64,000 nt of DNA from an uncultured Gammaproteobacteria bacterium. GTDB lineage: Bacteria; Patescibacteriota; Microgenomatia; Daviesbacterales; UBA10151. The position numbers and the translations under genes are program-made. Each line of letters begins with the position of its first letter. Positions within the stretch are counted from its first letter, which is position 1. Under the pieces are notes generated by a model. The model was not told the origin of the DNA. It ran no database searches and saw nothing but the letters and a program-made list of their open reading frames with translations. The stretch covers positions 107,724 through 171,723 of the forward strand of contig CAZWRN010000001.1 in assembly GCA_964636275.1 (NCBI GenBank). The letters run 5' to 3'. Below, piece after piece: positions 5,240-63,387 of this stretch.

Positions 5240-5417
5240 TATTGGTTTAAAAGGTATTTTCTCGAGTATGCACTCGAAAAATAAATATTTTAACTGTAAA
5301 AACTCTACCGGATTGGATGAGAGAATGCAACTTGACAGGTTATGAGTGTGTGAAAATAGTGACACGCAATACGAGATACGCAAAATGAACGATAATTAAT
5401 TGCGTGTTGCCTATTCG

Positions 5418-7364
5418 CTAGCTATTAAGCCAGTCGTCGTCGTCTTTGAGTGCTCGCTTGTCGATATCATCATCAAAACTATCATTGTATTTATCAGACA
5501 GATAGGAATCTGAATCGCGGTAGCTCATATTTTGATCGATCAATCCAGTTGGAATTGATCCAAGAAATCGAGAGGGAATAGCACCGGATCGGGTACCAAA
5601 GTACAAACGGGAACGGGTGTAGGTCATGTAAAGTTTTTCTTTCGCTCGGGTGATCCCAACATAGGCGAGGCGACGTTCTTCTTCCATCTCGGTGGGATTG
5701 AGCATTGAGCGGGAGTGTGGGAAAAGTCCTTCTTCCATGCCAACTAAGAAAACGCTTGGAAACTCTAAACCTTTGGAGGCATGGATGGTCATGAGGGTGA
5801 CTGCTTGTTGCTGCTCTTTCAAAGCTAATCCAGGCATCTGGTTGTCTTGGATCAGGGCAACATTTTCCATAAACTCGACTAAGATAGGAAATTCCTCAGC
5901 TACAGAGCGAAGCTCTTTAACGTTTTCAATTCGCATCTTGCCTTGCTCAGAGCCATCATCCAGATAATTGAGATAGTCTGTCGCAGATAAGATGAGATCT
6001 AGAATGTCTCGGGTAGTCATTCGAGGTTCCTGCACATCATGTTCGGTTTTTTTAGTTTCGCCGAACTCGGATGTTTCGATCGTTTCAGGGATGATTCCAC
6101 TGGTAGCGGTGAGAAAGCGCTGCATCCGGCCTTTACCGATTTTTTCGATTCTTTTTTTAGCTACTGAATCACCAGGATTTTCAACCAGTCGGAGATAGGC
6201 CAAGATATCTTTAATCTCTTTTCTCTGATAAAATTGGACACCACCTACTAAACGATACGGTAATCCTGCTTTAAGGAAAATTTCCTCAATCGAACGAGAC
6301 TGAGCATTGGTTCGATAAAGTACAGCAAAGTCTGACAAAGGTTTGCCAGAATTTTTGACTTCATCTAAGACAAAAATTGCTTCCTCCACTTCATTGCCGG
6401 CTTGGTAAAGAGTGATTTTTGGACCAGATTTTTGTTCAGTCCAAAGTTTTAAAATAGGATGAGATTTATTTTCGGCAATCACAGCATGAGCGGCATCTAA
6501 AATAGTTTGAGTTGATCGATAATTTTGTTCAAGGTTAAAAACTTTGGCTTCGGGGTAATCTTTTTTGAAATTGACGATATTGCGAAAATCAGCTCCTCGG
6601 AAGCCATAAATAGCCTGTGAAGCATCTCCAACAACACAGAGGTTGCGGTATCTTTTGGCCAGTTGCTTGATCAAATTGTATTGAGCAGCATTGGTGTCTT
6701 GGTATTCATCAACCAAGATGTATTTAAACTGTTGTTGGTACTGGGCTAGTTTTTCTGGTTGAGTGTGGAAAAGCTGATTGGTCATCATCAGGAGATCATC
6801 AAAATCCAGAGCCTGGTTGCGACGTAAAATCTTTTGGTACTCGATGTAGACTTTAGCAACTGTTTCCTGGAAATAGCCTCGGGCGTACTGTGGATATTCC
6901 ATTTCAGAGATGAGTTCATTTTTAGCCGAGGAGATGGTATAGCGGATTGAGTTTGGATTAAACTTTTTCTGGTCAATTGCTAACACACTCATAGCCTCTT
7001 TGACGGCATCCTGGGCATCGCCTTCATCATAAATAGAGAAGCCTGGTTTGAGTCCGAGCAAATATCCTTCGCGGCGCAAGATTTTGGCACAGATTGAGTG
7101 GAAAGTTCCCATCAGAGGCTGAACAGAGGTTTTACCAATCAGGTGCAAAATACGCTCTTTCATTTCACCGGCAGCTTTGTTGGTAAAGGTAACTACCATA
7201 ATTTGATCTGCTGGTATTTTTTTTTCAGAGATCAAGTAGGCGACCCGGAAGGTTAAGACACGTGTTTTTCCGGAACCAGCACCAGCTAGAATAAGTTCAG
7301 GACCTTCAGTAGTTTTAGCAGCTTGTTGTTGGATCGGGTTTAGACCATCGAGTAAGTCGGGCAT
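5418..7364 (-). CDS. pcrA: UvrD/PcrA-type ATP-dependent DNA helicase
   Basis: Walker A 'AGAGSGKTRVLT', 'VDEYQDTN', 'GDASQAIYGFRGA', 'TIHASKGLEF' superfamily-1 helicase motifs. Likely start at MPDLLDGLNP. Confidence 0.85.
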   Translation of the reverse strand: MPDLLDGLNPIQQQAAKTTEGPELILAGAGSGKTRVLTFRVAYLISEKKIPADQIMVVTFTNKAAGEMKERILHLIGKTSVQPLMGTFHSICAKILRREGYLLGLKPGFSIYDEGDAQDAVKEAMSVLAIDQKKFNPNSIRYTISSAKNELISEMEYPQYARGYFQETVAKVYIEYQKILRRNQALDFDDLLMMTNQLFHTQPEKLAQYQQQFKYILVDEYQDTNAAQYNLIKQLAKRYRNLCVVGDASQAIYGFRGADFRNIVNFKKDYPEAKVFNLEQNYRSTQTILDAAHAVIAENKSHPILKLWTEQKSGPKITLYQAGNEVEEAIFVLDEVKNSGKPLSDFAVLYRTNAQSRSIEEIFLKAGLPYRLVGGVQFYQRKEIKDILAYLRLVENPGDSVAKKRIEKIGKGRMQRFLTATSGIIPETIETSEFGETKKTEHDVQEPRMTTRDILDLILSATDYLNYLDDGSEQGKMRIENVKELRSVAEEFPILVEFMENVALIQDNQMPGLALKEQQQAVTLMTIHASKGLEFPSVFLVGMEEGLFPHSRSMLNPTEMEEERRLAYVGITRAKEKLYMTYTRSRLYFGTRSGAIPSRFLGSIPTGLIDQNMSYRDSDSYLSDKYNDSFDDDIDKRALKDDDDWLNS

Positions 7365-11444: not shown

Positions 11445-11539
11445 GTTCGTGTTAGAATGCAGAATATAGTATATAGAATGCAGTTGGTGATTAATGTTTT
11501 TGCTATATTCTAAACTCAATATTCTATATTCTTTTACGT

Positions 11540-14705: not shown

Positions 14706-14822
14706 ACACGAAAACCTCCTTTGGAAAGAAGGCTATATTCATTGTAGATCTTTAAGGATAAAAAGGTAAGATGTTAAGCAGGCATTTAGTAAGTAGTAAG
14801 TAGGGTATGTGTATGGTATATA

Positions 14823-15593: not shown

Positions 15594-15643
15594 AACTTGT
15601 GAAGTGTACCATATAGCTAGGCTCAAGTGCAAGCTAAAGGATT

Positions 15644-15813
15644 AATAATCAAGTAACAAGATCCAAGTCTTCCAGAGAAAGTCAAAACTCAAAAGGCAAA
15701 AAGCAAAAATACAATTAAAAAGTGAGAAATTTTGACTTACGATTTGTATTTTTGACTTCTAACTTTTACTCTTTAATTTTTTTGTATCTTGGTGATTGTT
15801 TCTTGTATCTTTG
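15644..15813. repeat. palindromic intergenic element (CAAGATACAA/TTGTATCTTG family), copy between divergent rpsT and murJ
   Basis: Left arm TAATAATCAAGTAACAAGATCCAAG; right arm TTTGTATCTTGGTGATTGTTTCTTGTATCTTTG ends 28 nt before the murJ ATG. Confidence 0.55.
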
Positions 15814-15841
15814 CCTGGATTGCTTGATAATTTAGACACTT

Positions 15842-17473: not shown

Positions 17474-17569
17474 GTTAGTAAGTAGGCTTTAGTAAGTAGT
17501 TTGTAGGTAAGGATAAACCGAATTCTAAACTAGATACAAAATACCAGATACTATATACTTTTTTATACT

Positions 17570-20028: not shown

Positions 20029-20068
20029 TTGCCTTGATATTTCAGCCTCAAGTATAGATAATAGCCTC

Positions 20069-22182: not shown

Positions 22183-22325
22183 AATAAATTAAGTTTCCAA
22201 GAAACAATGTATCAAGTACAAAATTAAAGGTGGCCGAATTGATGAATCCTGAAACGAAAGAGGATACCAGACCGTCTATATTTACTATACACCTCTGACA
22301 CTTTTAAGTGTCAAGGAATTATTGA

Positions 22326-22429
22326 TTAATAATCAAGATACAATTTACCAAGATACAAATAAAATTTAGGTTATCAAATGATCAATTTTAAATTGTTTGT
22401 TTTTTGTATCTTGTTTCTTGATTATTATT
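22326..22429. repeat. palindromic intergenic element, copy upstream of the small ORF/hrcA region
   Basis: Left arm TTAATAATCAAGATACAATTTACCAAGATACAAA; core TCAAATGATCAATTTTAAATTG; right arm TTTTGTATCTTGTTTCTTGATTATTATT. Confidence 0.6.
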
Positions 22430-22552
22430 TTTGGGGTTGACAGATATTTTTCAAAAAAGGTATTGTAAGAACTCGGGCTTTTTGACAAAATTCTTACATA
22501 GAATCTAGGAAAAATGTTGTTATAACAATCTAAAAGGAGTATATTATAGTTA

Positions 22553-22822
22553 ATGCCGCTTGAAATAAAACAGTCAGTTGAAAAAAATAAAAAAGAAGAT
22601 GAGAAAAGTCTGGTAGAGCATTTAGTGGAACTTCGAAATATTGTCGGACGAGTGATGTCAGGGGATATTGAAAGTGGTAGTGGGGTGAGCAATACCGTGG
22701 GACATCGTCGGTTTGATCCGCAAAATCAAACAGCTCGGCAGACTGTGGTCACGAGTGGCACGTCAACTTCCGATGACTCCAGTTCATCCACAAATGATTC
22801 CTCTCAAAGCAACTCTAAGTAA
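22553..22822 (+). CDS. small hypothetical protein with Ser-rich tail
   Basis: Strong RBS 'AAAGGAG' 9 nt upstream of the ATG; possible promoter TTGACA..TATTGT about 100 nt upstream. No homology recognised. Confidence 0.35.
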   Translation: MPLEIKQSVEKNKKEDEKSLVEHLVELRNIVGRVMSGDIESGSGVSNTVGHRRFDPQNQTARQTVVTSGTSTSDDSSSSTNDSSQSNSK

Positions 22823-22901: not shown

Positions 22902-22938
22902 TTGACAGGTATTAGCACTCGCGGTATTATATTGCTAA
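22902..22938 (+). promoter_or_regulatory. sigma-70-like promoter overlapping a CIRCE-like HrcA operator upstream of hrcA
   Basis: TTGACA (22902-22907), 17 nt, TATTAT (22925-22930). 'TTAGCACTC-N9-TATTGCTAA' (22912-22938) matches CIRCE TTAGCACTC-N9-GAGTGCTAA, with the left half perfect and the right half 6/9. Confidence 0.6.
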
Positions 22939-22977
22939 TCCTTCGACTTCGCTCAGGATAAATCTTAAAGAAAATGC

Positions 22978-23709: not shown

Positions 23710-23718
23710 GAGAAAATG

Positions 23719-23826
23719 GATCAAGTAACAAGATACAAGTACCAAGATATAAGTACCAAACAATATTTAATTGGTAAATTGATCAGATTTCAAATTGTTT
23801 GGAATATTTGATTAATTGTTTCTTGG
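23719..23826. repeat. palindromic intergenic element, copy upstream of grpE
   Basis: Left arm GATCAAGTAACAAGATACAAGTACCAAGATATAAG; core AAATTGATCAGATTTCAAATTG; right arm TTTGGAATATTTGATTAATTGTTTCTTGG. Confidence 0.6.
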
Positions 23827-23840
23827 AAAGCTTAAAACTT

Positions 23841-24541: not shown

Positions 24542-26461
24542 ATGGCTAAGATTATAGGAATAGATTTAGGTACAACAAATAGTGCGATGGCGGTGATGGA
24601 GGGTGGTAAACCCAAAGTTATCCATTCTGCAGAAGGCGCAAATACGATTCCTTCTGTGGTAAACCCGGTTAAAAGTGTGGTGGGTACTCCAGCCAAAAGA
24701 CAAGCGATTGTCAATCCAAAAGAGACAATCTTCTCCGTTAAGCGTCTGATGGGTCGAAAGCTGGATGATCCAGAAGTTCAGCGAGATCTGAAATGGCTGC
24801 CTTATGAAGTCAAAGCCGGTAAAAACGGTATGGCTGTAGTGTCTGTAGATGGTAAAGAATATACTCCACAAGAGATTTCAGCGATGGTGCTAAGTAAGAT
24901 CAAAGCTGATGCTGAGGCTTATTTGGGAGACAAAGTTACGGAAGCTGTCATTACCGTTCCTGCATACTTTGATGACTCCCAAAGACAGGCTACCAAGCAG
25001 GCAGGTGAGATTGCGGGGCTTAATGTTCAAAGGATCATCAATGAACCAACTGCTGCTGCATTGGCTTATGGTTTGGATAAACAAAACGCTCATACTATTG
25101 CTGTGTATGATCTTGGGGGCGGTACTTTTGATGTATCTATCCTTGAGCTGGGCGATGGTGTATTTGAAGTAAAGTCAACCAATGGTGACACTCACTTGGG
25201 TGGTGACGATTTCGATCAAGTGATTATTGACTATATTGCTGAAGAATTTAAGAAAGAGAGTGGTGTAGATCTCAAAAATGATAAACAAGCTTTGCAAAGA
25301 CTCAAAGATGCAGCTGAAAAAGCGAAAATCGAGCTGTCTTCTTCTCAGGAAACAGATATTTCTATCCCATTTGTGACAGCTGATGCTACCGGTCCTAAAC
25401 ATATCGATATGAAGCTGTCTCGAGCCAAGCTGGAAGCTTTGGTTCAGGGACTGATTGATAAATCATTTGATGCGGTTAAAGCGGCTTTAGCTGATGCCAA
25501 AATTGATGCCTCCAAAGTCGATGAAGTGGTGTTGGTTGGGGGTATGACCAGAATGCCAGCCGTACAAGCAGCAGTGGAGAAATTCTTTGGTAAAGAGCCA
25601 CATAAAGGTATTAATCCTGATGAAGTGGTAGCTATCGGTGCTGCAATTCAGGGAGGTGTCTTGGGGGGTGAAGTCAAAGATGTATTGCTGCTCGATGTGA
25701 CCCCTCTGACTTTGGGGATTGAAACACTGGGGGCTGTAAGTACACCGTTGATCCCTCGCAACAGTACTATTCCAACTTCAAAATCTGAAACTTTCTCGAC
25801 CGCGGCTGACAATCAGACCTCAGTGGAGATCAATGTGCTCCAAGGTGAAAGACAGATGGCAGCTGACAACAAATCTTTGGGTCGCTTTATGCTGGATGGT
25901 ATTCCACCAGCCCCTCGAGGAACTCCTCAGGTTGAAGTGACTTTTGATATCGATGCTTCCGGAATTTTGCATGTATCAGCCAAAGAGAAAACTACTGGTA
26001 AAGAGCAAAAAATCACTATTACCGGATCAACTGGTCTTGATAAAGATGAAGTTGAGCGAATGACCAAAGAAGCGGAAGCTCATGCTGAAGAAGATAAAAA
26101 GAAAAAAGAGGAGATTGAGACCCGAAATACGGCTGAACAGATCGTCTATACAGCTGAAAAAAGCCTGAAAGATGCTGAAGGTAAGATCGGTGATGATCTG
26201 AAAAAAGAAGTTGAAGAGAAGATTCAAGCAGTTAAAGATGCCAAAGAAGGTCCAATTGATGAATTAAAAGCCAAAGCAGATGCACTAGGTGAAAGTATGC
26301 AAAAAATCGGTGCTGAGATGTATAAAAACCAGCAACCAGCTGACAGTCAACAGTCTACAGCTGAAACAGGATCCGAAGAGCCAAAAACTGAATCCAATGA
26401 TGTTAAAGACGAAGCAGTTGAAGGCGAAGTAGTGGAAGAAGAGAAGAAAAAGGAAGAATAA
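24542..26461 (+). CDS. dnaK: chaperone DnaK (Hsp70)
   Basis: '[10 protein letters not shown]', 'DLGGGTFD', '[10 protein letters not shown]' Hsp70 signatures; acidic EEKKKEE C-terminus. Confidence 0.95.
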
Positions 26462-26737: not shown

Positions 26738-26759
26738 CTCGGGAGACCGGGGTTTTTTT
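26738..26759 (+). terminator. intrinsic terminator downstream of dnaK/small ORF
   Basis: CCTCGG-GAGA-CCGGGG stem with GNRA loop followed by TTTTTTT. Confidence 0.5.
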
Positions 26760-26840
26760 AAAGTTACAAGTCGCAAGAATCAAGTTGCAAGGAAAATATC
26801 CTTGACTCTAGACTCTTGTCACTGAGACACTACTAGATGT

Positions 26841-30674: not shown

Positions 30675-30676
30675 TT

Positions 30677-30776
30677 AATAATAATTTACCAAGAAACAAA
30701 TTCTAAGATACAAACAAAAAAAATTAATTAATTTTCAAATTTTTGGATGACTTGTTGCTTGTATCTTGATCATTAA
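30677..30776. repeat. palindromic intergenic element, copy between divergent membrane-protein and RDD genes
   Basis: Left arm TAATAATAATTTACCAAGAAACAAATTCTAAGATACAAACAA; right arm CTTGTTGCTTGTATCTTGATCATTAA. Confidence 0.55.
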
Positions 30777-30839
30777 CTTAAATGTAGCTGATGATTTGAT
30801 CTGTTGACAAGTAAGCAGTTTTTTGGTCAACTTAGATTA

Positions 30840-31766: not shown

Positions 31767-31846
31767 TCCTAGTTTCTTCGTTCTTCACAACTTGACTTTT
31801 TGAGGCTGACGGGCTAGAATGATCTTAACTTAACCTCTTAGAGATT

Positions 31847-31875
31847 GGGTGGACCTGAGGTCCGCCCCTTTTTTT
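31847..31875 (+). terminator. intrinsic terminator downstream of the RDD gene
   Basis: GGGTGGACC-TGAG-GTCCGCCC (one G-U wobble) followed by CTTTTTTT. Confidence 0.6.
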
Positions 31876-31964
31876 AAGAAAGGAAAAAGAAAGTATAAAG
31901 TACAAATTATAAAGGATAAAACCAGTTTTATAATTTATCGTTTATACTTCATAATTTAAATACT

Positions 31965-33419: not shown

Positions 33420-33441
33420 CCGCCGTTCAGGCGGTTTTTTA
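33420..33441 (+). terminator. intrinsic terminator between nusA and the four-helix-bundle gene
   Basis: CCGCC-GTTCA-GGCGG followed by TTTTTTATT. Confidence 0.6.
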
Positions 33442-33480
33442 TTATTAGGGAATAGAGATTAGTAATTAGGGATTAGTTAG

Positions 33481-33894
33481 ATGGAAGAGCAGAGATTTGA
33501 GAGTTATAAAAAATTAATAGTTTGGCAGAAATCAATCTATTTAGTTGAGCTTATTTATGGTTTAACTAGTGATTTTCCTAAAAACGAATTGTTTGGTTTA
33601 ATTTCTCAAATAAAAAGGTGTTCAATTTCGATACCATCAAATATTGCTGAAGGTTTTGGAAGAAGATCACAAAAAGAATATTTGCAGTTTTATTCTATTG
33701 CTTATGGTTCAGCTTTGGAATTGGAAACACAAATTTTAATTGCTAAGAAGCTTGGCTTTGGAAGTTTAAATAGTTACCAAAAGATTGAAAATTTACTAAC
33801 TGAAATAATAAAAATTTTATACGTTATGATTTATAAGAATAACAGTGGTTTTAAAGTGACAAGTATCAAAACTAATTACTATGGAAATATCTAG
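33481..33894 (+). CDS. four-helix-bundle protein (TIGR02436-like; '23S rRNA intervening sequence protein' family)
   Basis: 'LIVWQKSIYLVELIYGLTSDFPKNELFGLISQIKRCSISIPSNIAEGFGRRSQKEYLQFYSIAYGSALELETQ' matches this family. Confidence 0.7.
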   Translation: MEEQRFESYKKLIVWQKSIYLVELIYGLTSDFPKNELFGLISQIKRCSISIPSNIAEGFGRRSQKEYLQFYSIAYGSALELETQILIAKKLGFGSLNSYQKIENLLTEIIKILYVMIYKNNSGFKVTSIKTNYYGNI

Positions 33895-35382: not shown

Positions 35383-35454
35383 AATTGATCAAGTATCCAA
35401 GACACAAGTATCCAAAAAGGTTTGTATCTTGGAATTTGTTTCTTGATTATTAAT
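35383..35454. repeat. palindromic intergenic element (short-spacer copy) immediately 5' of the DHH-like gene
   Basis: TAATTGATCAAGTATCCAAGACACAAGTATCCAAAAAGG / TTTGTATCTTGGAATTTGTTTCTTGATTATTAAT; ATG 6 nt after the right arm. Confidence 0.6.
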
Positions 35455-35459
35455 ATAAA

Positions 35460-37142
35460 ATGGCTGATTATTCAAACCTTTTAGGTGATTTTCCCTCTAA
35501 ACTTGCTTCAAGTAAGCGTATTTTGCTGGCTCTTTCCAAAGATTTGAGCGTAGATTCGTTGGGTTCAGCATTAGCAATGGCTTTAGCTTTGCAAAAGGCT
35601 GGTAAGACGGTATCAGTGGTGAGTGAAGGGACTCCATTGGTCTCACATTCTAATTTATTTGGAATTGGTGAGGTGAAAAATAGTGTCCCTACTTCTGGTG
35701 AAGGTAACTTTGTAATAAAACTGGATGGGGTAGTAGACCCCTCAGGTCAGATGAATACTGTGCCAGCTTTGGAAAAACTTGATTGGAACCCAGAGGGATC
35801 AGCTTTAAACTTAGTTTTCCATGTTGTACCAGGCCAGAGATTTGAGCCGACAAATGTGTCTTATGGCCATGAAACAAGTGGTTTTGACCTGATTATTACA
35901 ATCGATGCTGATTCTTTGGACGAATTAGGCCAGATTTATCTGAAAAATGCTGCACTTTTTAGTAAATCGACGATTGTAAATATTGACAATGAAGCTTCAA
36001 ATAGCCAGTTTGGCAATATCAATATCGTTGATCCGCAGGCTTCCTCTTTGTCTGAAATGACTGTTCATATCCTCAAGCAACTCAATCTTGAGATGGATCA
36101 AGATATCGCTTCCAACCTAGTTGCTGGTATCTATGCTGCAACCCACAATTTGACTCAGCGAGTGAGTCCGGATACTTTCGCGGCCGTTGCTACTGCAATG
36201 CAGTCGGGTGGTAAATTGCCAGAAGGGGGAGTTGTTAGTCAGCAACCAGCTGTCAGCAATCAGCCTTCAGCAAACTCAGCTCCGCAGGAACCTGCAGTAG
36301 AAGCCCAACCAATTGTTCAGGCCCCGATTGCTCAGGAAATCAATCAGATTCAGTTTAATAACCTGCCTTCAGCTGTCAGCGATCAGCCTTCAGCAACTCC
36401 AGCTCCGCAGGTTGTAGAGCCACCAGTAGCTGTTGCTCCTCAGCCAGCTATAAATCCAGAGCCAGTTCAAACACCTGTTCAGCCAGCTGTAGAAGCTCCG
36501 GCAAATGATCTGTATAGTAATCCTTTCCTAAACCCAGGTGGTCAGTCTTTTGGTGCTCCATTAAATCAGCCTCCAGCTGTCAGCGATCAGCCATCAGCAA
36601 CTCCAGCTCCGCAGGTACCAGCTGCTGCATCAGCGAGTGATCCGTTTGGGGCTCCAGCTAGTGGACCAACTTTCAATTTTGGTTCATTTGGAGATAGTCA
36701 GCTATCAGCTGTCAGCAATCAGCCTTCAGCAAACTCAGCTCCGCAGGTGCCAGTAGCTGCTCAACCAGTTCCTGTTCAGGAAGAAAAAGTCGATGTTAGT
36801 GGTCTTTTAAATACTATTCAGCAGGCCAATAAACCAGATAGTGCCTATGATTTAAAACAGATATTTAATGTTGAACAGATGCCAGAAACTCCAGTGGTAG
36901 GAAATACGACGCATGATTCAGCAGTGGTTCAGCCATCAGCTGTCAGCGATCAGCCATCAGCCATCCCAACTCCGCAGACTCCAGTAGATCAAACACAACC
37001 TGTTCAGGATAGTAAACCAGAGTCTTCACCGGAAGAAAAACCAGCTGGTGAAGCAGTTGATTCAGTAAATACAGAAGCGGAAGCCAATCCAACCCCAGAT
37101 TGGTTAGTCCCCAAAATATTCAAAGGCGGATCTTTAGGATAA
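35460..37142 (+). CDS. DHH-family (NrnA-like) phosphoesterase homolog with degenerate catalytic motifs fused to a Q/P/S-rich repeat tail
   Basis: N-terminal about 240 aa resembles the DHH domain, but motif I is 'DLSVDSLGS' (for H.nPDGD.lGS) and motif III is 'DAD' (for DHH). The C-terminal 300 aa has 5-6 copies of '(Q)PSAVSDQPSA(T/N)(P/S)APQ'. Confidence 0.5.
   Translation: MADYSNLLGDFPSKLASSKRILLALSKDLSVDSLGSALAMALALQKAGKTVSVVSEGTPLVSHSNLFGIGEVKNSVPTSGEGNFVIKLDGVVDPSGQMNTVPALEKLDWNPEGSALNLVFHVVPGQRFEPTNVSYGHETSGFDLIITIDADSLDELGQIYLKNAALFSKSTIVNIDNEASNSQFGNINIVDPQASSLSEMTVHILKQLNLEMDQDIASNLVAGIYAATHNLTQRVSPDTFAAVATAMQSGGKLPEGGVVSQQPAVSNQPSANSAPQEPAVEAQPIVQAPIAQEINQIQFNNLPSAVSDQPSATPAPQVVEPPVAVAPQPAINPEPVQTPVQPAVEAPANDLYSNPFLNPGGQSFGAPLNQPPAVSDQPSATPAPQVPAAASASDPFGAPASGPTFNFGSFGDSQLSAVSNQPSANSAPQVPVAAQPVPVQEEKVDVSGLLNTIQQANKPDSAYDLKQIFNVEQMPETPVVGNTTHDSAVVQPSAVSDQPSAIPTPQTPVDQTQPVQDSKPESSPEEKPAGEAVDSVNTEAEANPTPDWLVPKIFKGGSLG
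36238..36990 (+). repeat. intragenic dispersed 45-nt repeat CAGCTGTCAGCGATCAGCC(A/T)TCAGCAACTCCAGCTCCGCAGG (5 copies), encoding 'AVSDQPSATPAPQ'
   Basis: Copies at about 36250, 36366, 36576, 36708 and 36940 inside the DHH-like gene; related copies at 41935 (Lon-like gene) and 43275 (rnj). Confidence 0.7.
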
Positions 37143-41817: not shown

Positions 41818-41858
41818 TGTCAAATACTACCAATGTCAAATGACAAATGCCCAATCAT

Positions 41859-41886
41859 TAGACATTAGACATTAGACATTAGACAT
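41859..41886. repeat. (TAGACAT)x4 heptanucleotide tandem repeat upstream of the Lon-like ATPase gene
   Basis: Four perfect units, 10 nt before ATG 41897; a candidate slipped-strand (phase-variable) promoter/leader spacer. Confidence 0.7.
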
Positions 41887-41896
41887 TTAATACATT

Positions 41897-43054
41897 ATGG
41901 ATAATTCTGCCCAAAATAATCAGCAACAACAGCCATCAGCCGTCAGCGATCAGCTATCAGCCAACCAAGCTCAGCAAGGTCCGATTTCTACAGCAGTGGT
42001 CGATAAACTAGTTACCTCACAAAATCCCAGTCAGATTGTGGATAAACTGAAGGCTAAAGTGGCGGCAGCGCAGTTGCCTGCTGATGTTTTGGAAAAAATC
42101 CAAGATGAGGTGAGTCGGATTGAGCTGGTATTTGCCAGAAAAGAGTTTAATCCCGAGCTGGACCGGCAGATCAAATATATTGATTTTATTTGTGAATTAC
42201 CATGGAATAAAGTCGGCCAAGACAATCTGGATTTAAATCATGCCAAACAGATTTTGGAAAAAAATCATCACGGTCTAGAACCCTTAAAAGCTCGGATTTT
42301 GGAATATCTGTCGATTTTGATCTTAAATAAGCAGAAAGGTTTGACACCAAAGCAGCCGGTATTGGCTTTTGTGGGGTTAGCGGGGTCCGGAAAAACGACG
42401 ATCGCTTTTTCGATAGCCGAAGCTTTGGGAAGACCGATCATTCGTATTCCATTTGGTGGTCTTGGTTCAGCACTTCAGTTGCGTGGTGAATCCCGGGTGA
42501 AGTCTGAAGCTGAGCCGGGGATGATCGCGAAAGCGATGAAAAAAGCTCAGGTGAAAAATCCGGTTATCTTGATCGATGAGATCGATCGTGTGACCGATTC
42601 AGCCAGGACGGATATAATGGGGGTTTTAATTGAGCTTTTGGATCCAGAGCAGAATATGGCTTTTACCGATCATTATGTCGGTTTCCCTTTCGATCTGTCA
42701 CAAGTATTATTTGTCGCTACCGCCAATAACACTGGCAATGTGGCTACAGCGGTACTAGATCGTCTGGAACTCATAGAGATGCCTTTTTATACTGATGAAC
42801 AAAAAGTGGTGATTGGTAGAGATTATCTGCTGCCGCAGGCCTTAAAAAATGCCGGTTTGGATCCACAAACGGTCCAGATCAGCAATGAGATGTGGAGCCA
42901 GATTGTGCGTCCACTGGGGTTTGATGGCGGAATTCGTTCTTTAAAGCGCAATATTACCAATATGACTGGGAAAATTGCCCGGATGGTAGTCGAAGGAAAC
43001 AAGGGACCGTTTGTAATAAATGAACAGAACTTAGCCCAGTATTTGAATATATAG
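41897..43054 (+). CDS. Lon-like AAA+ ATPase module without LON N-domain or protease domain; Q-rich N-terminal extension
   Basis: Aligns with the Lon ATPase segment: 'YIDFICELPWN', 'HHGLEPLKARILEYL', Walker A 'GLAGSGKTT', Walker B 'VILIDEIDRV', sensor-2 'GIRSLKR'. Ends 'NLAQYLNI*' where Lon continues into the protease domain. Confidence 0.75.
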   Translation: MDNSAQNNQQQQPSAVSDQLSANQAQQGPISTAVVDKLVTSQNPSQIVDKLKAKVAAAQLPADVLEKIQDEVSRIELVFARKEFNPELDRQIKYIDFICELPWNKVGQDNLDLNHAKQILEKNHHGLEPLKARILEYLSILILNKQKGLTPKQPVLAFVGLAGSGKTTIAFSIAEALGRPIIRIPFGGLGSALQLRGESRVKSEAEPGMIAKAMKKAQVKNPVILIDEIDRVTDSARTDIMGVLIELLDPEQNMAFTDHYVGFPFDLSQVLFVATANNTGNVATAVLDRLELIEMPFYTDEQKVVIGRDYLLPQALKNAGLDPQTVQISNEMWSQIVRPLGFDGGIRSLKRNITNMTGKIARMVVEGNKGPFVINEQNLAQYLNI

Positions 43055-43055
43055 A

Positions 43056-43146
43056 GATTAGGAAGTAAGATACAATAACCAAGAAACAAGTTATCCAATT
43101 AAGGAATATAGTTTAACTATTTGCATCTTGATTATTGTTTTCTTGG
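43056..43146. repeat. palindromic intergenic element, copy 5' of rnj
   Basis: Left arm GATTAGGAAGTAAGATACAATAACCAAGAAACAAG; right arm TTTGCATCTTGATTATTGTTTTCTTGG. Confidence 0.6.
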
Positions 43147-43157
43147 AAGACTTATTT

Positions 43158-44996
43158 ATGAAATCATTTAAACCACAACAACAGACTAATACGCAAAACG
43201 TAACACGCAATACGAGTACTCAAAAACCAACCATATACCATAATCCGCAGCCAGCGGGGGGAAATACTGTGCAGCAATCAGCTATCGGCTCTCAGCCATC
43301 AGCAAAAAACAGTAATCAGAATCAGCAGAAGAATCAACCAATGGGTGATACAGTGCGACTGATTCCATTGGGTGGTGTAGGCGATGTGACTAAAAACATG
43401 TATGTATATGAGTATAAAAATGACATCGTCATCGTCGACTGTGGTGTATCTTTTCCGGAAGAGAGTATGCCGGGGGTCGATTTGGTAATTCCGGATATTA
43501 GTTATTTGCGAGATAAAAAATCTAAAATCCGTGGTATTGTGATCACTCACGGGCACGATGATCATTATGGAGCGTTGCCATATATCTGGCCAGAGCTGGA
43601 TGTGCCCATTTACTCTCAAAAACTGACCTGTGGACTGATTCGTTCTAAATTCAGTGAGCACAAATTGCCAAAAGACAAGATCAAGGAGATGAAAATTACT
43701 GATACTGTTCAGTTGGGCGCCTTTAAAATTTCGGTATATCAGGTTTCTCATTCGGTCCCAGATTCAACAGGAGTGGTTTTGGAGACGCCAGTAGGCACTA
43801 TTATCCATCAGGCTGACTTTAAAATAGATTGGACACCGGTAAATGGACAGGTCCCCGATGTGGGTCGGGTAGCTGAGTTGGGACGAAAAGGGGTACTGAT
43901 GATGACTATTGATTGTCTTCGCAGTGAAAAGCCTGGTTATACTATTTCCGAAAAAACCATTCAGCCAACATTTGAAAAAATTGAAGCTGAGACCAGGGGG
44001 CAGTTGATCATTACCCTGATTACCTCCAATATCACCCGGATTCAGCAGGCTATAAATGTGGCTGTTCAGTCGGGTAGAAAAGTGGCATTTGTCGGTAGAA
44101 GCATGGAAAACAATGTTCAGGTGGCCAGAGATTTGGGCTATCTGCATGTTCCACCTGGAGTAGTGATCAATCAGGAAGAGGTTAGGCGATTTGCCCCAGA
44201 AAAACTAATGATTATTATTGCGGGTTCTTTGGGTCAGCCAGGTTCAGCCTTATCGCGGGCTGCTCATGGTGATCACAAAAATATTCGAATTAGTCCCACT
44301 GATACAGTTGTTTTTAGTGCCGATCCGATGCCGTCAGCTGAAATGTCTCAGGGGATGATAATTGATGCTTTAGCCAGAATTGGTTGTAAAGTGTATTATT
44401 CACGATTAACCGAAGATTTGCATGTTTCAGGTCACGCAGCCCAGGAAGAGTTGAAGCTGATGATCAATCTGGCTAAACCAAAAAACCTGATGCCTATGGG
44501 TGGTAATTTCCGTCACATGAGGGCATTTTCCGATATGGTCAAAGAGATGGGGTATAAAGACAACCAGATCTTTGCGTTAAAAGAGGTACAGGCAATTGAG
44601 ATCGGTCGTGATAAAGCCCGAATCGGTGAAAGAATCCGGGAAGAAAATGTCTATGTGGATGGGTTAGGGGTTGGAGATGTAGGGCAAATTATTTTGCGAG
44701 ACAGGCAGTTGATGAGTGAAGAGGGCGTGGTGGTGGTGATCGCTCGGGTTGATATGAAAACTGGCAAGTTGGAAGGTGAGCCGGATGTGATGTCCCGAGG
44801 ATTTGTCTTTGGTGAAAGTGGTCAGGATATTACTGGTGCTGCTAAAGAGATAGTTAAAAGTATCTTCTCAGGTCTTCATAGCGGACCGACAGATTTTAAA
44901 TATATTCGCCATGAAGTGGAAGACAATTTAGGCAAGTTTTTCTACGAAGAAACCAAACGCAAACCGTTGATTTTGACAACGGTTGTAGAGATTTAA
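43158..44996 (+). CDS. rnj: ribonuclease J with Q/N-rich N-terminal extension
   Basis: Metallo-beta-lactamase 'ITHGHDDHYGALPY', beta-CASP and C-terminal domain. ATG 43158 (MKSFKPQQ) preferred; the upstream TTG lies in an intergenic repeat. Confidence 0.9.
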   Translation: MKSFKPQQQTNTQNVTRNTSTQKPTIYHNPQPAGGNTVQQSAIGSQPSAKNSNQNQQKNQPMGDTVRLIPLGGVGDVTKNMYVYEYKNDIVIVDCGVSFPEESMPGVDLVIPDISYLRDKKSKIRGIVITHGHDDHYGALPYIWPELDVPIYSQKLTCGLIRSKFSEHKLPKDKIKEMKITDTVQLGAFKISVYQVSHSVPDSTGVVLETPVGTIIHQADFKIDWTPVNGQVPDVGRVAELGRKGVLMMTIDCLRSEKPGYTISEKTIQPTFEKIEAETRGQLIITLITSNITRIQQAINVAVQSGRKVAFVGRSMENNVQVARDLGYLHVPPGVVINQEEVRRFAPEKLMIIIAGSLGQPGSALSRAAHGDHKNIRISPTDTVVFSADPMPSAEMSQGMIIDALARIGCKVYYSRLTEDLHVSGHAAQEELKLMINLAKPKNLMPMGGNFRHMRAFSDMVKEMGYKDNQIFALKEVQAIEIGRDKARIGERIREENVYVDGLGVGDVGQIILRDRQLMSEEGVVVVIARVDMKTGKLEGEPDVMSRGFVFGESGQDITGAAKEIVKSIFSGLHSGPTDFKYIRHEVEDNLGKFFYEETKRKPLILTTVVEI

Positions 44997-51757: not shown

Positions 51758-51801
51758 GGGCGAAATTGTACTGCAAAGCTAGGTGTAAAGCAAACCAGAT
51801 A

Positions 51802-51895
51802 AGAATTTCTAAGTACTCTAATTGCTAATTACTAAACAAATCCCAAAAATCAAATTTCTAATATTCATTATTTAGATATTAGAAATTAGTAATTC
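51802..51895. repeat. second dispersed intergenic repeat family (AGAATTTCTAAGTACTCTAATTGCTAAT ... TTAGAAATTAG), copy 1
   Basis: 27-nt near-identical match to 60034-60060 plus a degenerate TTAGAAA tail; lies in the 5' region of the minus-strand ATPase-wHTH gene. Confidence 0.55.
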
Positions 51896-51901
51896 GAACT
51901 T

Positions 51902-52222: not shown

Positions 52223-52321
52223 ATAAAGATTATAGCACAATACTACAAAAAATGAAGTAACTTTATATAAATCTATGACTTTACACTTTTTGTGTGATCT
52301 GTTAAATTGATCTAACTTCTT

Positions 52322-53491: not shown

Positions 53492-53586
53492 GTCACAACT
53501 GTAATATGTGAAAATTTTGGTGTCAACTAGGTCGGATAAGATCTGATGAGATCGGATTAGATCGGAGATGTCCAGCGTTTCACAAA

Positions 53587-54252: not shown

Positions 54253-54293
54253 TAGTTTATTAAGTAGACTATAGTAAGTAGGCGGTAGGTAAA

Positions 54294-57020: not shown

Positions 57021-59234
57021 ATGAAATTTCTTGATTCAATTTTAAACTCATTACCAATTCCAAAAAAGAATGAACCTGTAGAGTACTACTTTGGTTTGAA
57101 TATCAGTCCGAGTATGGTGTATGGCTGTGTCTGGGGGATCCGAAGCGGTAAGCTGCATGTACTAAGCTCTTCAAAAACAGTCTATGAATCGGAAAAAGAC
57201 CTGATTGAAGCTGCCAATTATGTTTTGGATGAAGCATTGGCCGATTTTCAGCCTGAACCAGCTAAGATTTTATTTGGTGTGCCGGATGACTGGTTGGCAG
57301 ATGATGATCTGAAGCCGGAATACCTTAAAACATTGAAACAGCTGGTTAAAGAGCTAGATGTAGTCCCGTTGGCTTATGTGGCATCAACCAATGCAATTGC
57401 CCATCTGATAGCGAGGCAGACCGGTGTGCCTTTGACGGCAATATTAGTTCATATTTCTGATCCGGTGACAGTGTCGGTGGTGAAAACAGGCAAAGTTCAG
57501 GGTACTAAGCAGGTTAAAAAGAGTGATCATCTGGCCAAAGATATTGAAAAAGCTTTGATGAATTTTACCGAAGTTGAGGTGATGCCATCTAAGATTATTA
57601 TTTATGGTGATGATAAAGTTGGCAAATACAAAGAAGATCTGACATCTTATGCTTGGATGACACAGTTGCCTTTTTTGCATTTGCCAAAAATTGAGGATTT
57701 GGACCCAGGTATTGTAGTTCAGGCAGTTGCTTACGCCGGAGCTTCCGAGATAGATCCAGAAGTGCATGTCTTATCCCAAAATATTGTTGAGGATGTTAAA
57801 TCAGCTGGTAAAACCAAACCATTACATCTAGATATGGAATCGCATCATGGGCGACATCAAACAAAAGATAAACATGGTCTGGATAATGTGGGTTTTGTGA
57901 CAGGAGATATTGCTGATAAAAATCAGGAGATGCTAATGGAAGATGAAGAGTTGGGCGGAGGAGAAGATGTTGATGTTTATGGTCGGGCTGTCCCAATGCG
58001 TCACAACTCACATTCAGTTAAAGAGTCACATCTATCAGAAGTCCCAGCGTTGTCTGCAGGCTCTAAAATGGGTATGCCGGTCGGTATTTTAGGGCTTTTG
58101 GGTGGAAGTACCAAGCTTTTGATTATCCCGCTTATTTTACTGGTACTGGTTGGGGTTTATCTATATTTCCAAAAGGCAAAAGTGACGGTATTTGTGGACC
58201 TTAAAACAGTGGAGAATACTACCACTGTCACAGCCGACCCTAAAGTGAGTACGGTTGATGAACCAAATAAGATTATTCCTGGTGAAATGGTGTCTGCTGA
58301 GGTTTCAGGAAATGATAAAGGTCAGGCAACAGGTAAAAAACAGGTTGGTGATGCTGCTAAAGGAAAGGTGATTATTTACAATGCGACGGATAAATCATTG
58401 GTAATTGATAAAGGAACGACTCTCACCAATGATAAAGGTCTCAAGTTTACATTGGATGGAAGCGTTCAAGTTGCATCAAAATCGGCTAGTGCGGCTGATC
58501 CCCCGACCAAATCGAGTTTAGTGGACGCAACAGCTGCGGTAATTGGCCCGGATAGTAATATTCCGGCTGGGGGAGATCTGAGTGTGGGTGGGTTTAATAA
58601 GTCTGATGTTGTAGCCAAAGTCGATACTGCATTTAGTGGCGGTGTCTCCAAAGATGTGACTGTGGTCACGGCAGATGATCAAAATAGGCTGTTGGCCAAA
58701 GTATTGGCTGATCTGAAAAAACAGGCAAAAGATGAACTTCAATCAAAAATGACTGGAGATGTCAAAGTATTGGAAGAAGCGTTGAGCGACACTGTTATTA
58801 AAAAGACCTTTTCAAAGAATGTCGGGGATCAAGCTAGTGATTTTACCTTGAACCTGACTGTGAAATTGCTGGGTACATCATATAAAGATAGTGATCTGAA
58901 ATCAATTGTATCCAAATTGGTTCAGGTAGATGTGCCAGCTGGGTATGATCTTGATCTGAGTCAAACTGAAACTCAAGCCGATGTGTCTAAAGTTGAAAAA
59001 GATGGTAGATTGGTTTTTTCGGCTAAATTTAAAGCCAAGCTGATGCCCAAGTTTGATTTAGAACAACTTAAAAAAGATATTGTGTTTAAAAGTGCTTCTC
59101 AGGCAGCGGATAGGTTGAAGCAAATTGAAAATGTTATTGGTTCAGATATTGAATTTAAACCTGATTTACCAGGACCGTTGGAGAGATTACCAATACTGAC
59201 AAAAAATATAGATTTAGAAGTTACAGCTAAATAA
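57021..59234 (+). CDS. bitopic membrane protein: FtsA/PilM-like actin-fold N-terminal cytoplasmic domain, TM, about 360-aa beta-rich extracellular domain
   Basis: N-terminal 'YYFGLNISPSMVYGCVWGIRSGKLHVL' resembles the PilM/FtsA 'GIDIGsssik' phosphate-1 region; TM at about aa 352-384. Confidence 0.45.
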   Translation: MKFLDSILNSLPIPKKNEPVEYYFGLNISPSMVYGCVWGIRSGKLHVLSSSKTVYESEKDLIEAANYVLDEALADFQPEPAKILFGVPDDWLADDDLKPEYLKTLKQLVKELDVVPLAYVASTNAIAHLIARQTGVPLTAILVHISDPVTVSVVKTGKVQGTKQVKKSDHLAKDIEKALMNFTEVEVMPSKIIIYGDDKVGKYKEDLTSYAWMTQLPFLHLPKIEDLDPGIVVQAVAYAGASEIDPEVHVLSQNIVEDVKSAGKTKPLHLDMESHHGRHQTKDKHGLDNVGFVTGDIADKNQEMLMEDEELGGGEDVDVYGRAVPMRHNSHSVKESHLSEVPALSAGSKMGMPVGILGLLGGSTKLLIIPLILLVLVGVYLYFQKAKVTVFVDLKTVENTTTVTADPKVSTVDEPNKIIPGEMVSAEVSGNDKGQATGKKQVGDAAKGKVIIYNATDKSLVIDKGTTLTNDKGLKFTLDGSVQVASKSASAADPPTKSSLVDATAAVIGPDSNIPAGGDLSVGGFNKSDVVAKVDTAFSGGVSKDVTVVTADDQNRLLAKVLADLKKQAKDELQSKMTGDVKVLEEALSDTVIKKTFSKNVGDQASDFTLNLTVKLLGTSYKDSDLKSIVSKLVQVDVPAGYDLDLSQTETQADVSKVEKDGRLVFSAKFKAKLMPKFDLEQLKKDIVFKSASQAADRLKQIENVIGSDIEFKPDLPGPLERLPILTKNIDLEVTAK

Positions 59235-59339
59235 TAATAATCAAGATACAAGTAACAAGTATCCAAATAATTAGAAAATTGATCAATTTTTAAATTGGTT
59301 TTTGTTTGTTTCTTGGGATTTGTTTCTTGGATATTAATT
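59233..59339. repeat. palindromic intergenic element, copy 5' of the sortase gene
   Basis: Left arm TAATAATAATCAAGATACAAGTAACAAGTATCCAAA; core AAAATTGATCAATTTTTAAATTGG; right arm TTTGTTTGTTTCTTGGGATTTGTTTCTTGGATATTAATT. Confidence 0.6.
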
Positions 59340-60028: not shown

Positions 60029-60030
60029 TG

Positions 60031-60162
60031 TTAGAATTTCTAAGTACTCTAATTCCTAATATCTAAATAAGATCCAAATCTCAAGACGCTAAATACTTTT
60101 AGGATAATTTAGTTAGAAATTAGAAATTAGAAATTAGAAATTAGAAATTAGAAATTAGAAAT
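60031..60162. repeat. second dispersed intergenic repeat family, copy 2, ending in (TTAGAAA)x7 heptanucleotide tandem repeat (60113-60161)
   Basis: TTAGAATTTCTAAGTACTCTAATTCCTAAT, then seven perfect TTAGAAA units ending 4 nt before the ruvX ATG. Confidence 0.7.
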
Positions 60163-60165
60163 TTT

Positions 60166-60558: not shown

Positions 60559-60684
60559 ACGATAGATGATAGAAAATTGAAGATAGGGGTAGATGATGGA
60601 TTATAGAAAATAAAATTTGATCTATCTGCTATTCTCAATCTTCCACAACTATTTTCTACTATCTATTTACTATTTTCTAGAGTT

Positions 60685-63334: not shown

Positions 63335-63387
63335 AGAAGATTATTATAGTTCATAATGACCGATTTGGAAAATATTTTCTTTTAAAA

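Follow-up and report, generated by a model that had tools for sequence, protein, structure and literature searches.

The repetitive extragenic palindromic (REP) sequences of the proteobacteria, including bacterial interspersed mosaic elements (BIME) and REP doublets forming hairpins (REPIN), are intergenic palindromes mobilized in trans by the REP-associated tyrosine transposases (RAYT). Among the miniature inverted-repeat transposable elements (MITE) are the Correia elements of Neisseria, RUP and BOX of the pneumococcus and Nezha of the cyanobacteria, while the short tandemly repeated repetitive (STRR) sequences of the cyanobacteria are heptamer repeats. Here, we describe a family of short palindromes with arms composed of imperfect units of seven nucleotides (nt) that share the core (A)CAAG. 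They were identified in a 64-kb stretch of DNA (the window; positions are numbered along the whole stretch) whose GrpE and RNase J homologues carry the label Candidatus Daviesbacteria, of the candidate phyla radiation. These CAAG-heptad palindromes combine the properties of interspersed palindromic repeats with those of heptanucleotide simple sequence repeats (SSR). The seven loci at which they were first noticed (the original prediction) are part of a larger pattern: the CAAG palindromes are one of several heptad-repeat families that have recently filled tiny intergenic gaps. No prior description of the palindromic form emerged from an open-access literature search covering the unit sequences and patescibacterial heptamer repeats.

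The likeness to REP and REPIN sequences is considerable: both are short, imperfect intergenic palindromes present in many copies per genome, with an inverted doublet of ~100 nt capable of forming a long hairpin as the replicating unit; both are transcribed within operons, vary in presence between relatives, and have no mobilizing gene linked to them. The window elements differ in that no GTAG-type REP head was found in the alignment of their arms, which are 7-nt arrays, no RAYT-like protein was seen among the scanned open reading frames (ORFs), the host belongs to the candidate phyla radiation, and several unrelated unit vocabularies coexist. With the MITEs, they share terminal inverted repeats, a length of 70–170 nt, AT-richness, insertion polymorphism, and insertion into 5′ untranslated regions (5′UTRs) and intercistronic spacers with co-transcription. 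Unlike MITEs, they have no demonstrable target-site duplication and no cognate insertion sequence was found among the scanned ORFs; they possess an internal heptad periodicity, and the resemblance between arms is no greater within a window copy than between copies.

The closest published heptamers to abut start codons lacking a Shine-Dalgarno (SD) sequence are the TAACTGA repeats of the Beggiatoaceae, cyanobacteria, and Bacteroidetes, for which 169 direct sets and a single inverted one were recorded (PMC4679880). The TAACTGA and STRR repeats resemble the window arrays in their 7-nt unit, intergenic location mostly a few nt upstream of SD-less starts, occasional presence within ORFs, and patchy phylogeny. 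The window units, however, are imperfect with a conserved core, are organized as two inverted arrays around a spacer, and occur as many unit types per genome. Heptad spacing is also a feature of two nucleic acid-binding systems. Omega (ParB), the ribbon-helix-helix protein of plasmid pSM19035, recognizes at parS 7-bp WATCACW heptads in both direct and inverted orientation (PMC9499535), while HutP recognizes XAG-N4 sites in RNA, with an XAG every 7 nt and two three-motif sites flanking a stem (PMC2425495). The window arrays present a short core at a comparable interval of 7 bp or 7 nt, oriented both ways as with omega and in two sites flanking a stem as with HutP, but they differ from these systems in sequence, are split by a spacer of 20–100 nt, and occur by the dozen on a chromosome. 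Most of them are not at promoters or terminators, and no homologous binding protein was seen in the window and the syntenic loci of its relatives.

Architecture and genomic context of the CAAG palindromes

The window has a G+C content of ~40%, and its plus strand holds nearly all of the genes. Exact matches to CAAGWWACAA number 20 compared to an expectation of 0.94, and none of 100 dinucleotide-preserving shuffles of the window reached 20. All of these matches fall within the seven loci and a lone arm at 22198, and their orientation is strict; matches on the plus strand are left arms and those on the minus strand are right arms. A hidden Markov model (HMM) was trained on the 14 arms of the seven loci and run on both the window and the syntenic DNA of relatives. 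Its 16 matches in the window comprised the 14 training arms, the lone arm (22191–22217) and a degenerate arm upstream of dnaJ (26759–26784), and nothing else. The common architecture originally proposed for the seven loci, with a right arm that is an imperfect reverse complement of the left, was thus confirmed at the coordinates given by sequence, motif count, and HMM, as was the suspicion of a degenerate copy preceding dnaJ. The members of the family are as follows, palindromes being listed without strand:

15642..15815: CAAG-heptad palindrome in the divergent spacer between rpsS20 (minus strand) and murJ; arms 15642–15672 (plus) and 15781–15811 (minus), divergent centre of ~100 nt
22191..22225, minus strand: lone CAAG-type arm, reading TTGTACTTGATACATTGTTTCTTGGAAACTTAATTTATT-ATG on the minus strand, directly 5′ of the MFS gene start; HMM match 22191–22217
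22326..22429: CAAG-heptad palindrome, the best of the set, flanked by the –35 boxes of two divergent promoters (MFS and small ORF); arms 84% complementary, fold z = –4.95
23719..23829: CAAG-heptad palindrome filling the hrcA-grpE spacer; recognized by sequence and arm HMM
26759..26832: degenerate CAAG-type palindrome, (CAAGnnn)x4...(nCTTGnn)x3, between the dnaK terminator and dnaJ; recognized by arm HMM, fold z = –2.7
30675..30778: CAAG-heptad palindrome forming the entire predicted 5′UTR of a minus-strand gene of 351 amino acids (aa), upstream of the RDD promoter; minus-strand promoter TTGTCA-18-TACATT at 30810–30781
35383..35454: short CAAG-heptad palindrome separating the ATG of a DHH-family gene from the extended –10 box TGGTATAAT; z = –3.3, arm HMM
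43058..43148: CAAG-heptad palindrome filling the spacer between an AAA-ATPase gene and rnj; recognized by sequence and arm HMM
59233..59338: CAAG-heptad palindrome following the stop codon of a 737-aa gene, upstream of the sortase gene; z = –3.9, arm HMM

Imperfect 7-nt units follow one another along each arm, with (A)CAAG-N2/3 used in left arms and the complementary sequence in right arms, as exemplified by the copy at 23719 (CAAGTAA CAAGATA CAAGTAC CAAGATA TAAGTAC). The CAAG starts are spaced by 7 nt, and the (A)CAAG core is constant while the remaining 2–3 positions vary. Both this periodicity and the presence of other heptad families beside start codons in the window had been overlooked in the original prediction. 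The elements are 70–170 nt in length with outer ends of TAATAAT; the terminal sequences TAATAATCAAG...CTTGATTATTA are common to several copies, and in three to four copies the arms enclose a common central core, AAATTGATCA(A/G)ATTT(T/C)AAATTG. A GATC-centred core had been attributed to most copies, but it is complete in only three (22326, 23719, 59233), partial and without GATC in 30677, and missing from the centres of 15644, 35383, and 43056. With the 22326 copy, the arms are 25–27 nt long and 78–84% complementary (25 nt and 84% by inverted-repeat detection). The family is strictly non-coding. Terminal inverted repeats on a short (<500 nt) non-coding element are characteristic of MITEs, and the head-to-tail arrangement of 7-nt units, evident as self-match at a lag of 7 nt, is that of a heptanucleotide SSR. 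The CAAG units are, however, not near-identical repeats in one direct array; they differ at 2–3 of 7 positions and form two inverted arrays around a unique centre.

The CAAG copies occupy every non-coding context, being found between divergent promoters, in 5′UTRs, and in intercistronic spacers. Four are in co-directional contexts: three (23719, 43058, and 59233) between adjacent genes and one (26759) past the dnaK terminator. The copies at 35383 and 30675, located downstream of a promoter, form the whole predicted 5′UTR of their respective genes. The 22326 copy is separated from the next downstream ATG by 123 nt, a stretch that includes the promoter of that gene (TTGACA-18-TATTGT, 22437–22466); as the copy is flanked by the –35 boxes of the divergent MFS and small-ORF promoters, it is probably untranscribed. 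The right arm of the 30677 copy is ~60 nt from the real RDD start (ATG at 30840), with a promoter intervening. The distance of 0–45 nt initially assigned between right arm and start codon therefore does not apply to these two copies. The identities given to the neighbouring genes (MurJ, HrcA, GrpE, RDD, DHH, RNase J, and sortase) were correct, and the elements do account for the spurious upstream TTG starts in the list of ORFs.

The original prediction also raised the possibility that the repeats donate promoters. A scan for sigma-70 promoters revealed no outward-facing site scoring ≥9 of 12 in any arm, and promoter-like counts equalled those expected from shuffles; credible promoters are located outside the elements, at 22437, 22902, 31792, 37163, and 38540. 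Promoter donation is thus not supported, nor do the arms match –35/–10 boxes. Likewise, none of the elements was called as a terminator-like structure, genuine intrinsic terminators being found elsewhere (e.g., 31847 and 33420). A known RNA family was not recognized either; there was no Rfam match in the window, and 18 array-bearing loci of other phyla yielded one tRNA only.

An SD sequence is absent from ~54 of the 64 genes in the window (~85%), with an SD-like motif in the other ~10, including the sortase gene with its own GAGGGGG. Its absence is consequently a property of the genome and not of the elements, and what had been regarded as a special trait of the genes following the repeats is not one. 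Substitution of the elements for an SD sequence was likewise rejected, as ~85% of genes are SD-less with or without an array and many appear leaderless. Indeed, many genes have no SD but a –10-like box that finishes 6–9 nt before the ATG, which suggests, from sequence, that their mRNAs are leaderless. Examples are:

20034–20068; 51758–51790 (minus strand); 52223–52245 (minus strand); 53492–53526 (minus strand); 63335–63360 (minus strand); 30806–30839: genes with a –10-like box near the ATG

Turnover among relatives

Syntenic loci were retrieved through homologues of GrpE and RNase J at 70–99% identity. The main relatives are designated L001, L003, L004, L005, L007, L127, L128, and L130, with L007 being the 99% relative by GrpE; a metagenome scan for GrpE relatives returned a single locus. 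While the HMM identified 16 CAAG arms in the 64-kb window, it found none in the ~75 kb of syntenic DNA from L001, L005, L128, and L130, indicating that the family has expanded in the lineage of the window. Among the relatives, CAAG arms were limited to the MFS site in L003 and L004 and to hrcA-grpE in L007.

Filled and empty orthologous sites were found between conserved flanking genes, with the empty sites in L001, L005, L128, and L130. The spacer between the AAA-ATPase gene and rnj is filled by an element in the window and spans 103 nt, compared to 16 nt in L128 and 5 nt in L130. The site between the 349-aa and RDD genes has an element in the window and is empty in L005, and the DHH gene of both L001 and L128 has the same –10 box (TGCTATAAT) 8 nt from its ATG, no element, and a leaderless appearance. 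The 22326 copy is absent in L005 and partly deleted in L003. As spacers without an element are only 5–16 nt long, the adjacency of elements to start codons is attributable to genome compaction.

The arrays also differ in length and composition between strains, as do heptanucleotide SSRs that change in copy number. The hrcA-grpE element of the window differs by a 14-nt (two-heptad) indel from that of L007, despite 99% identity of GrpE, and at 41818 the window has a right arm homogenized to a perfect (TTAGACA)x4 where L128 has imperfect units. The hrcA-grpE spacer itself has undergone turnover; it is occupied by a CAAG palindrome in both the window and L007, by one of the AATGTCA type in L001, L003, and L005, and by an octad palindrome, (TTAATCAG)x4...(CCGATTAA)x4, at 300–410 of L127 (79% GrpE identity). 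Given this octad version, the repeat-array palindrome is not strictly tied to a 7-nt unit. At the pre-dnaJ site, L001 has instead an (AATTACA)n...(TAATTTA)n palindrome.

Other portions are highly conserved. The left arm of the AATGTCA family (38 nt) is shared without mismatch by 41818 of the window, the corresponding site of L128, and hrcA-grpE of L005, which is not an orthologous location, whereas 4-fold degenerate sites between these genomes are only 32–50% identical. Similarly, the first ~137 nt comprising the lone arm and MFS leader are ~93% identical to those of L003, with 4-fold sites at 40%. Within this conserved region upstream of the MFS gene, a block of ~95 nt (22226–22320), absent in L005 and without an Rfam match, probably represents the MFS promoter (TTGACA...TGTATAGT, minus strand) and a structured 5′ leader.

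Two further features were noted between the 22326 and 23719 copies. The hrcA promoter (TTGACA-17-TATTAT, 22902–22950) overlaps a CIRCE-like half-site, TTAGCACTC-N9-TATTGCTAA, of which the right half is degenerate. Upstream of hrcA, a conserved 89-aa ORF (22553–22822) has its own strong promoter, a long leader, and a canonical SD (AAGGAG), one of the few in the window; it has no Pfam match, and the same arrangement is present in L003 and L005.

Heptad families in the window and beyond the lineage

At least eight heptad-repeat families were identified in the window. By sliding autocorrelation, 168 segments forming 17 clusters reached the threshold of ≥68% self-match at lag 7, compared to none at lags 3–6, 8, and 11; of all the repeat spacings examined, only 7 nt and its multiple, 14 nt, were prominent. 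Most of the non-CAAG arrays are also palindromic and finish a few nt before an ATG. They include:

41818..41896: AATGTCA/TTAGACA family; left arm TGTCAAATACTACCAATGTCAAATGACAAATGCCC, right arm a perfect (TTAGACA)x4 ending 11 nt before an ATG; lag-7 self-match 0.93, z = –3.1
60029..60165: TTTCTAA/TTAGAAA family; right arm a perfect (TTAGAAA)x7 ending 4 nt before an ATG; lag-7 self-match 1.00; a related copy at 51800–51900
31877..31950: AAAGTAT/ATAATTT palindrome just 5′ of nusA; 87% complementary, detected by lag-7 autocorrelation; similar array in L005
7841..7880, plus strand: direct, non-palindromic (TAG-N4)n array filling a stop-to-start spacer; detected by lag-7 autocorrelation
~14790–14815, 17474–17512, 54253–54293, 33440–33480: sister copies of the TAG-N4 array
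36566..36973, plus strand: three ATCAGCC-type arrays inside the DHH coding region, each encoding a QPSAVSDQPSA-like peptide
41924–41967 (AAA-ATPase N-terminus), 43271–43306 (RNase J N-terminus), and 26326–26361: sister ATCAGCC arrays

Further units are CTAGTCA before rpsO, GATAGnn at 60559, and AGAATAT at 11445. The perfect (TTAGAAA)x7 tract at 60110–60162 precedes a 130-aa gene; tracts of this type are prone to change copy number by slippage and could modulate the expression of that gene. A need for stop codons in all three frames was considered as the reason for the TAG-N4 arrays, but it is inapplicable to CAAG units, and the same could be achieved with a period of 4 or 5 nt. Arrays are absent from all three convergent (3′-3′) spacers of the window that exceed 40 nt, a sample too small to weigh.

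Two observations concern the vicinity of nusA. A 137-aa gene at 33481–33894, encoding a 23S rRNA intervening-sequence protein of bAvd-like type (PF05635, E = 1.4e-37), lies between nusA and infB and is preceded by a (TTAGnnA)x5 heptad array. In L001 and L005, nusA is followed directly by infB. Upstream of nusA, at 31792–31875 (~4740–4835 in L001), is a conserved promoter (TTGACT-17-TAGAAT), a leader, and a strong terminator-like hairpin, GGGTGGACCTGAGGTCCGCCC with a T run, which has no Rfam match and may function as an attenuator.

The ATCAGCC arrays encode their QPSAVSDQPSA-like peptide in disordered parts of three unrelated proteins. This peptide is absent from the L128 orthologues, and the arrays are present in the DHH orthologue of L001. 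The palindromic elements of Rickettsia are short repeats that likewise occur in frame within unrelated coding genes. Tandem repeats of Borg elements are described as creating disordered protein segments (PMC9879509). The resemblance to both lies in the addition of a low-complexity peptide to unrelated genes by in-frame repeat copies, and it is confined to the ATCAGCC family, the CAAG family being non-coding.

For the distribution of the elements beyond the lineage, the pattern CAAGAWACAA-N30-60-TTGTWTCTTG was scanned against 185,579 species genomes, which provided at least 119 loci. The same scan of 2.9 million viral contigs returned 38 matches and served as the empirical null. Among the matches listed, 85 of 123 from genomes were extended by at least two further in-phase CAAG/CTTG units compared to only 2 of the 38 viral matches, a difference that argues against chance as the source of the matches in other phyla. 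Outside the matched sites, the array-bearing genomes among these matches contained 80 other lag-7 arrays per 779 kb versus 2 per 271 kb of viral DNA. The extended CAAG arrays among the matches listed were found within the Patescibacteria (Saccharibacteria, Parcubacteria groups, Roizmanbacteria, Daviesbacteria, and Peregrinibacteria), the Bacteroidota (Mucilaginibacter, Chitinophagaceae, and Flavobacterium), Omnitrophota, Acidiferrobacterales, Thioalkalivibrio, Clostridia, and several other groups. Other palindromic dialects were also seen there; Thioalkalivibrio, for example, has (GAAGGAT)n...(ATCCTTC)n, and Peregrinibacteria have (TTACGAA)n...(TTCGTAA)n. Ten lag-7 arrays are contained within 8 kb of Thioalkalivibrio denitrificans ALJD (NZ_MVBK01000032.1; e.g., 5292–5468 and 7021–7233), in the dialects GAAGGAT/ATCCTTC, CAGCCCT, and CAAGnnn; as a cultured isolate, this organism is convenient for experiments. 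By contrast, the close relative L130 has none in 21.8 kb compared to the 17 lag-7 arrays in the 64-kb window, so richness in heptad palindromes is a patchy trait at the level of the genome.

Origin and possible roles

At slightly less than even odds (a probability of roughly 0.45), the CAAG palindromes are REPIN/MITE-like repeats acting at the DNA level, which proliferate within the lineage, change length in 7-nt steps, and are tolerated in 5′UTRs and intercistronic spacers. Support for this is provided by the non-periodic centre and ends shared among the copies, by the same 38-nt arm at non-orthologous sites (41818 of the window and hrcA-grpE of L005), and by the heptad arrays copied into the coding regions of three unrelated proteins. 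That the process operates on DNA is further supported by the absence of compensation within elements, the equal folding of sense and antisense strands (both described below), and the location of the best copy outside any predicted transcript. The MITE/REP-like mobile repeat suggested in the original prediction is broadly supported by the empty sites, the lineage expansion, and the shared ends and centre, but neither a target-site duplication nor, among the window proteins scanned, a transposase could be demonstrated.

A number of observations weigh against this interpretation. Pfam scans of 40 of the ~64 window proteins revealed no transposase, RAYT, or other candidate mobilizing gene. With the other array-bearing genomes, ORFs located up to 2.5 kb from 123 arrays were compared all-against-all by BLASTP, which identified no family in more than 5 of the 119 loci among the matches listed, and hence no recurrent mobilizing gene adjoining them. 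There is no consistent direct repeat around the copies; their flanks are mutationally saturated, and with 4-fold sites only 32–50% identical, a target-site duplication is not demonstrable. A possible TTAA is present at both ends of 30675–30778, where the empty site of L005 differs by 8 further nt. Some form of palindromic repeat array resides in the hrcA-grpE spacer of all five lineages examined. Moreover, several arms are conserved far beyond neutral expectation (38/38 nt; ~93% over 137 nt), and such conservation points to selection or very recent transfer rather than to junk DNA. The recurrence of ACAAG-heptad palindromes across phyla is a poor fit to a purely selfish or neutral account, and the constancy of the (A)CAAG core amid variable unit positions, in the window genome and across phyla, suits recognition by a protein better than slippage alone.

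This last pattern is what would be expected if the arms were binding arrays for a protein reading a short core at 7-nt spacing, either on DNA, as with omega/ParB, or on RNA, as with HutP or the cold-shock proteins (with their footprint of ~7 nt), to furnish a regulon-wide layer of control acting on transcription, or else on mRNA decay and SD-independent translation. Other families also retain cores (TAG-N4 and TCAGC-N2), the lone arm by the MFS start is conserved without a partner arm, and the conservation of arms above neutral expectation would be accommodated. The operator array proposed in the original prediction agrees in geometry with the omega operator, where a core of 4–5 nt recurs at 7-bp spacing in direct and inverted orientation (PMC9499535), the heptads of HutP are equally documented (PMC2425495), and binding by S1, Csp, or CsrA was proposed for the TAACTGA heptamers that closely precede SD-less starts in Beggiatoaceae (PMC4679880). 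Nevertheless, such a role for the window arrays seems somewhat unlikely. With at least eight distinct unit sequences in 64 kb, many binders would be required in a small genome; moreover, the orthologous genes of close relatives lack copies without visible compensation, the majority of copies lie clear of promoters, and the sense strand is not favoured. Homologues of HutP, TRAP, omega, and CspB gave no tblastn match below E = 1 in the window and syntenic loci, which, covering a small part of the genome, is weak evidence. A role as RNA stem-loops, i.e., 5′-terminal or intercistronic hairpins that protect mRNA from RNase J, mark processing sites, or join stop and start codons for re-initiation, is judged unlikely. 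A model for it exists in the dnaK operon of Bacillus subtilis, which has a processing site and stabilizing stem-loop between hrcA and grpE; the equivalent spacer here always carries a palindrome, and RNase J is encoded in the window. The left arms of the copies concerned begin at the upstream stop codon and their right arms finish 4–25 nt before an ATG, while for both the DHH gene and the minus-strand 351-aa gene the predicted transcription start is the first base of the hairpin. When folded as RNA, as had been recommended, the segments at 22322 (z = –4.95), 59232 (z = –3.9), and 35380 (z = –3.3) were clearly more stable than shuffles, but those at 23716 (z = –1.8), 43055 (z = –1.9), and 30675 (z = –0.9) were weak or no better, so the expectation of hairpins holds for part of the set. 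The best hairpin, 22326, is the copy that is probably untranscribed, and none has an Rfam match. Mean arm complementarity is 20.8 within elements compared to 25.9 between elements (permutation p = 0.99), and the summed folding energies of 14 elements are –296.6 and –297.7 kcal/mol for the sense and antisense strands, respectively, with equal G-U counts. With neither compensation between arms nor an advantage of the sense strand, there is no sign of selection for a sense-strand RNA hairpin.

The arrays might also represent a neutral by-product of replication slippage favouring 7-nt units, followed by the formation of palindromes through template switching, with neither function nor mobility. 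Slippage of this kind, with an excess of heptamers among the long SSRs of bacteria, has been reported (Mrazek, 2007, as cited in PMC4679880). The perfect (TTAGAAA)x7 and (TTAGACA)x4 tracts, the 14-nt indel between near-identical strains, the many unrelated unit sequences, and the octad version in L127 are all in accord with it. It does not, however, explain near-identical non-periodic sequence at non-orthologous sites and across genomes with saturated 4-fold sites, a non-repetitive centre common to the CAAG copies, a core conserved across phyla, or the lack of arrays in the three convergent spacers, and as a full account it is very improbable.

With a REPIN/MITE-like repeat, copying would take place at the DNA level through a trans-acting factor or gene conversion, and heptads would be gained and lost through replication slippage. 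In a genome with spacers otherwise of 5–16 nt, the surviving copies would abut a stop or start codon. By folding back, the palindrome would keep the start codon near the stop codon (or near the 5′ end), such that copies could be tolerated in a setting of mostly SD-less initiation, whether by leaderless or re-initiation modes. Roles at the mRNA level may have been acquired by some copies, e.g., the one between hrcA and grpE and the lone arm preceding the MFS gene.

A broader proposition is that phased palindromes of 7-nt units, with a core of 4–5 nt such as ACAAG and many unit dialects per genome, constitute a widespread, undescribed class of bacterial element. These would be read by one or more nucleic acid-binding proteins of heptad spacing to form a genome-wide control layer (e.g., for SD-independent translation, mRNA decay, or local DNA structure) that has been gained and lost across the Patescibacteria, Omnitrophota, Gammaproteobacteria, Bacteroidota, and Clostridia. 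This proposition is decidedly doubtful. The palindromic form with a CAAG core is found in at least five phyla and not in viral contigs, where 2 of 38 matches were extended, and its 7-nt unit ties the elements to the long-unexplained excess of heptanucleotides in bacteria, be it as STRR, TAACTGA repeats, or long SSRs.

The elements account for most of the longer intergenic spacers of this compact genome as well as for the spurious upstream TTG starts. As array-rich and array-free genomes exist among close relatives, the window and L130 being one such pair, the enzyme or binding protein responsible could feasibly be sought by comparison. A genome of the candidate phyla radiation, often deemed streamlined and static, thus carries actively turning-over repeat families that reshape its 5′UTRs, its intercistronic spacers, and even disordered segments of its proteins.

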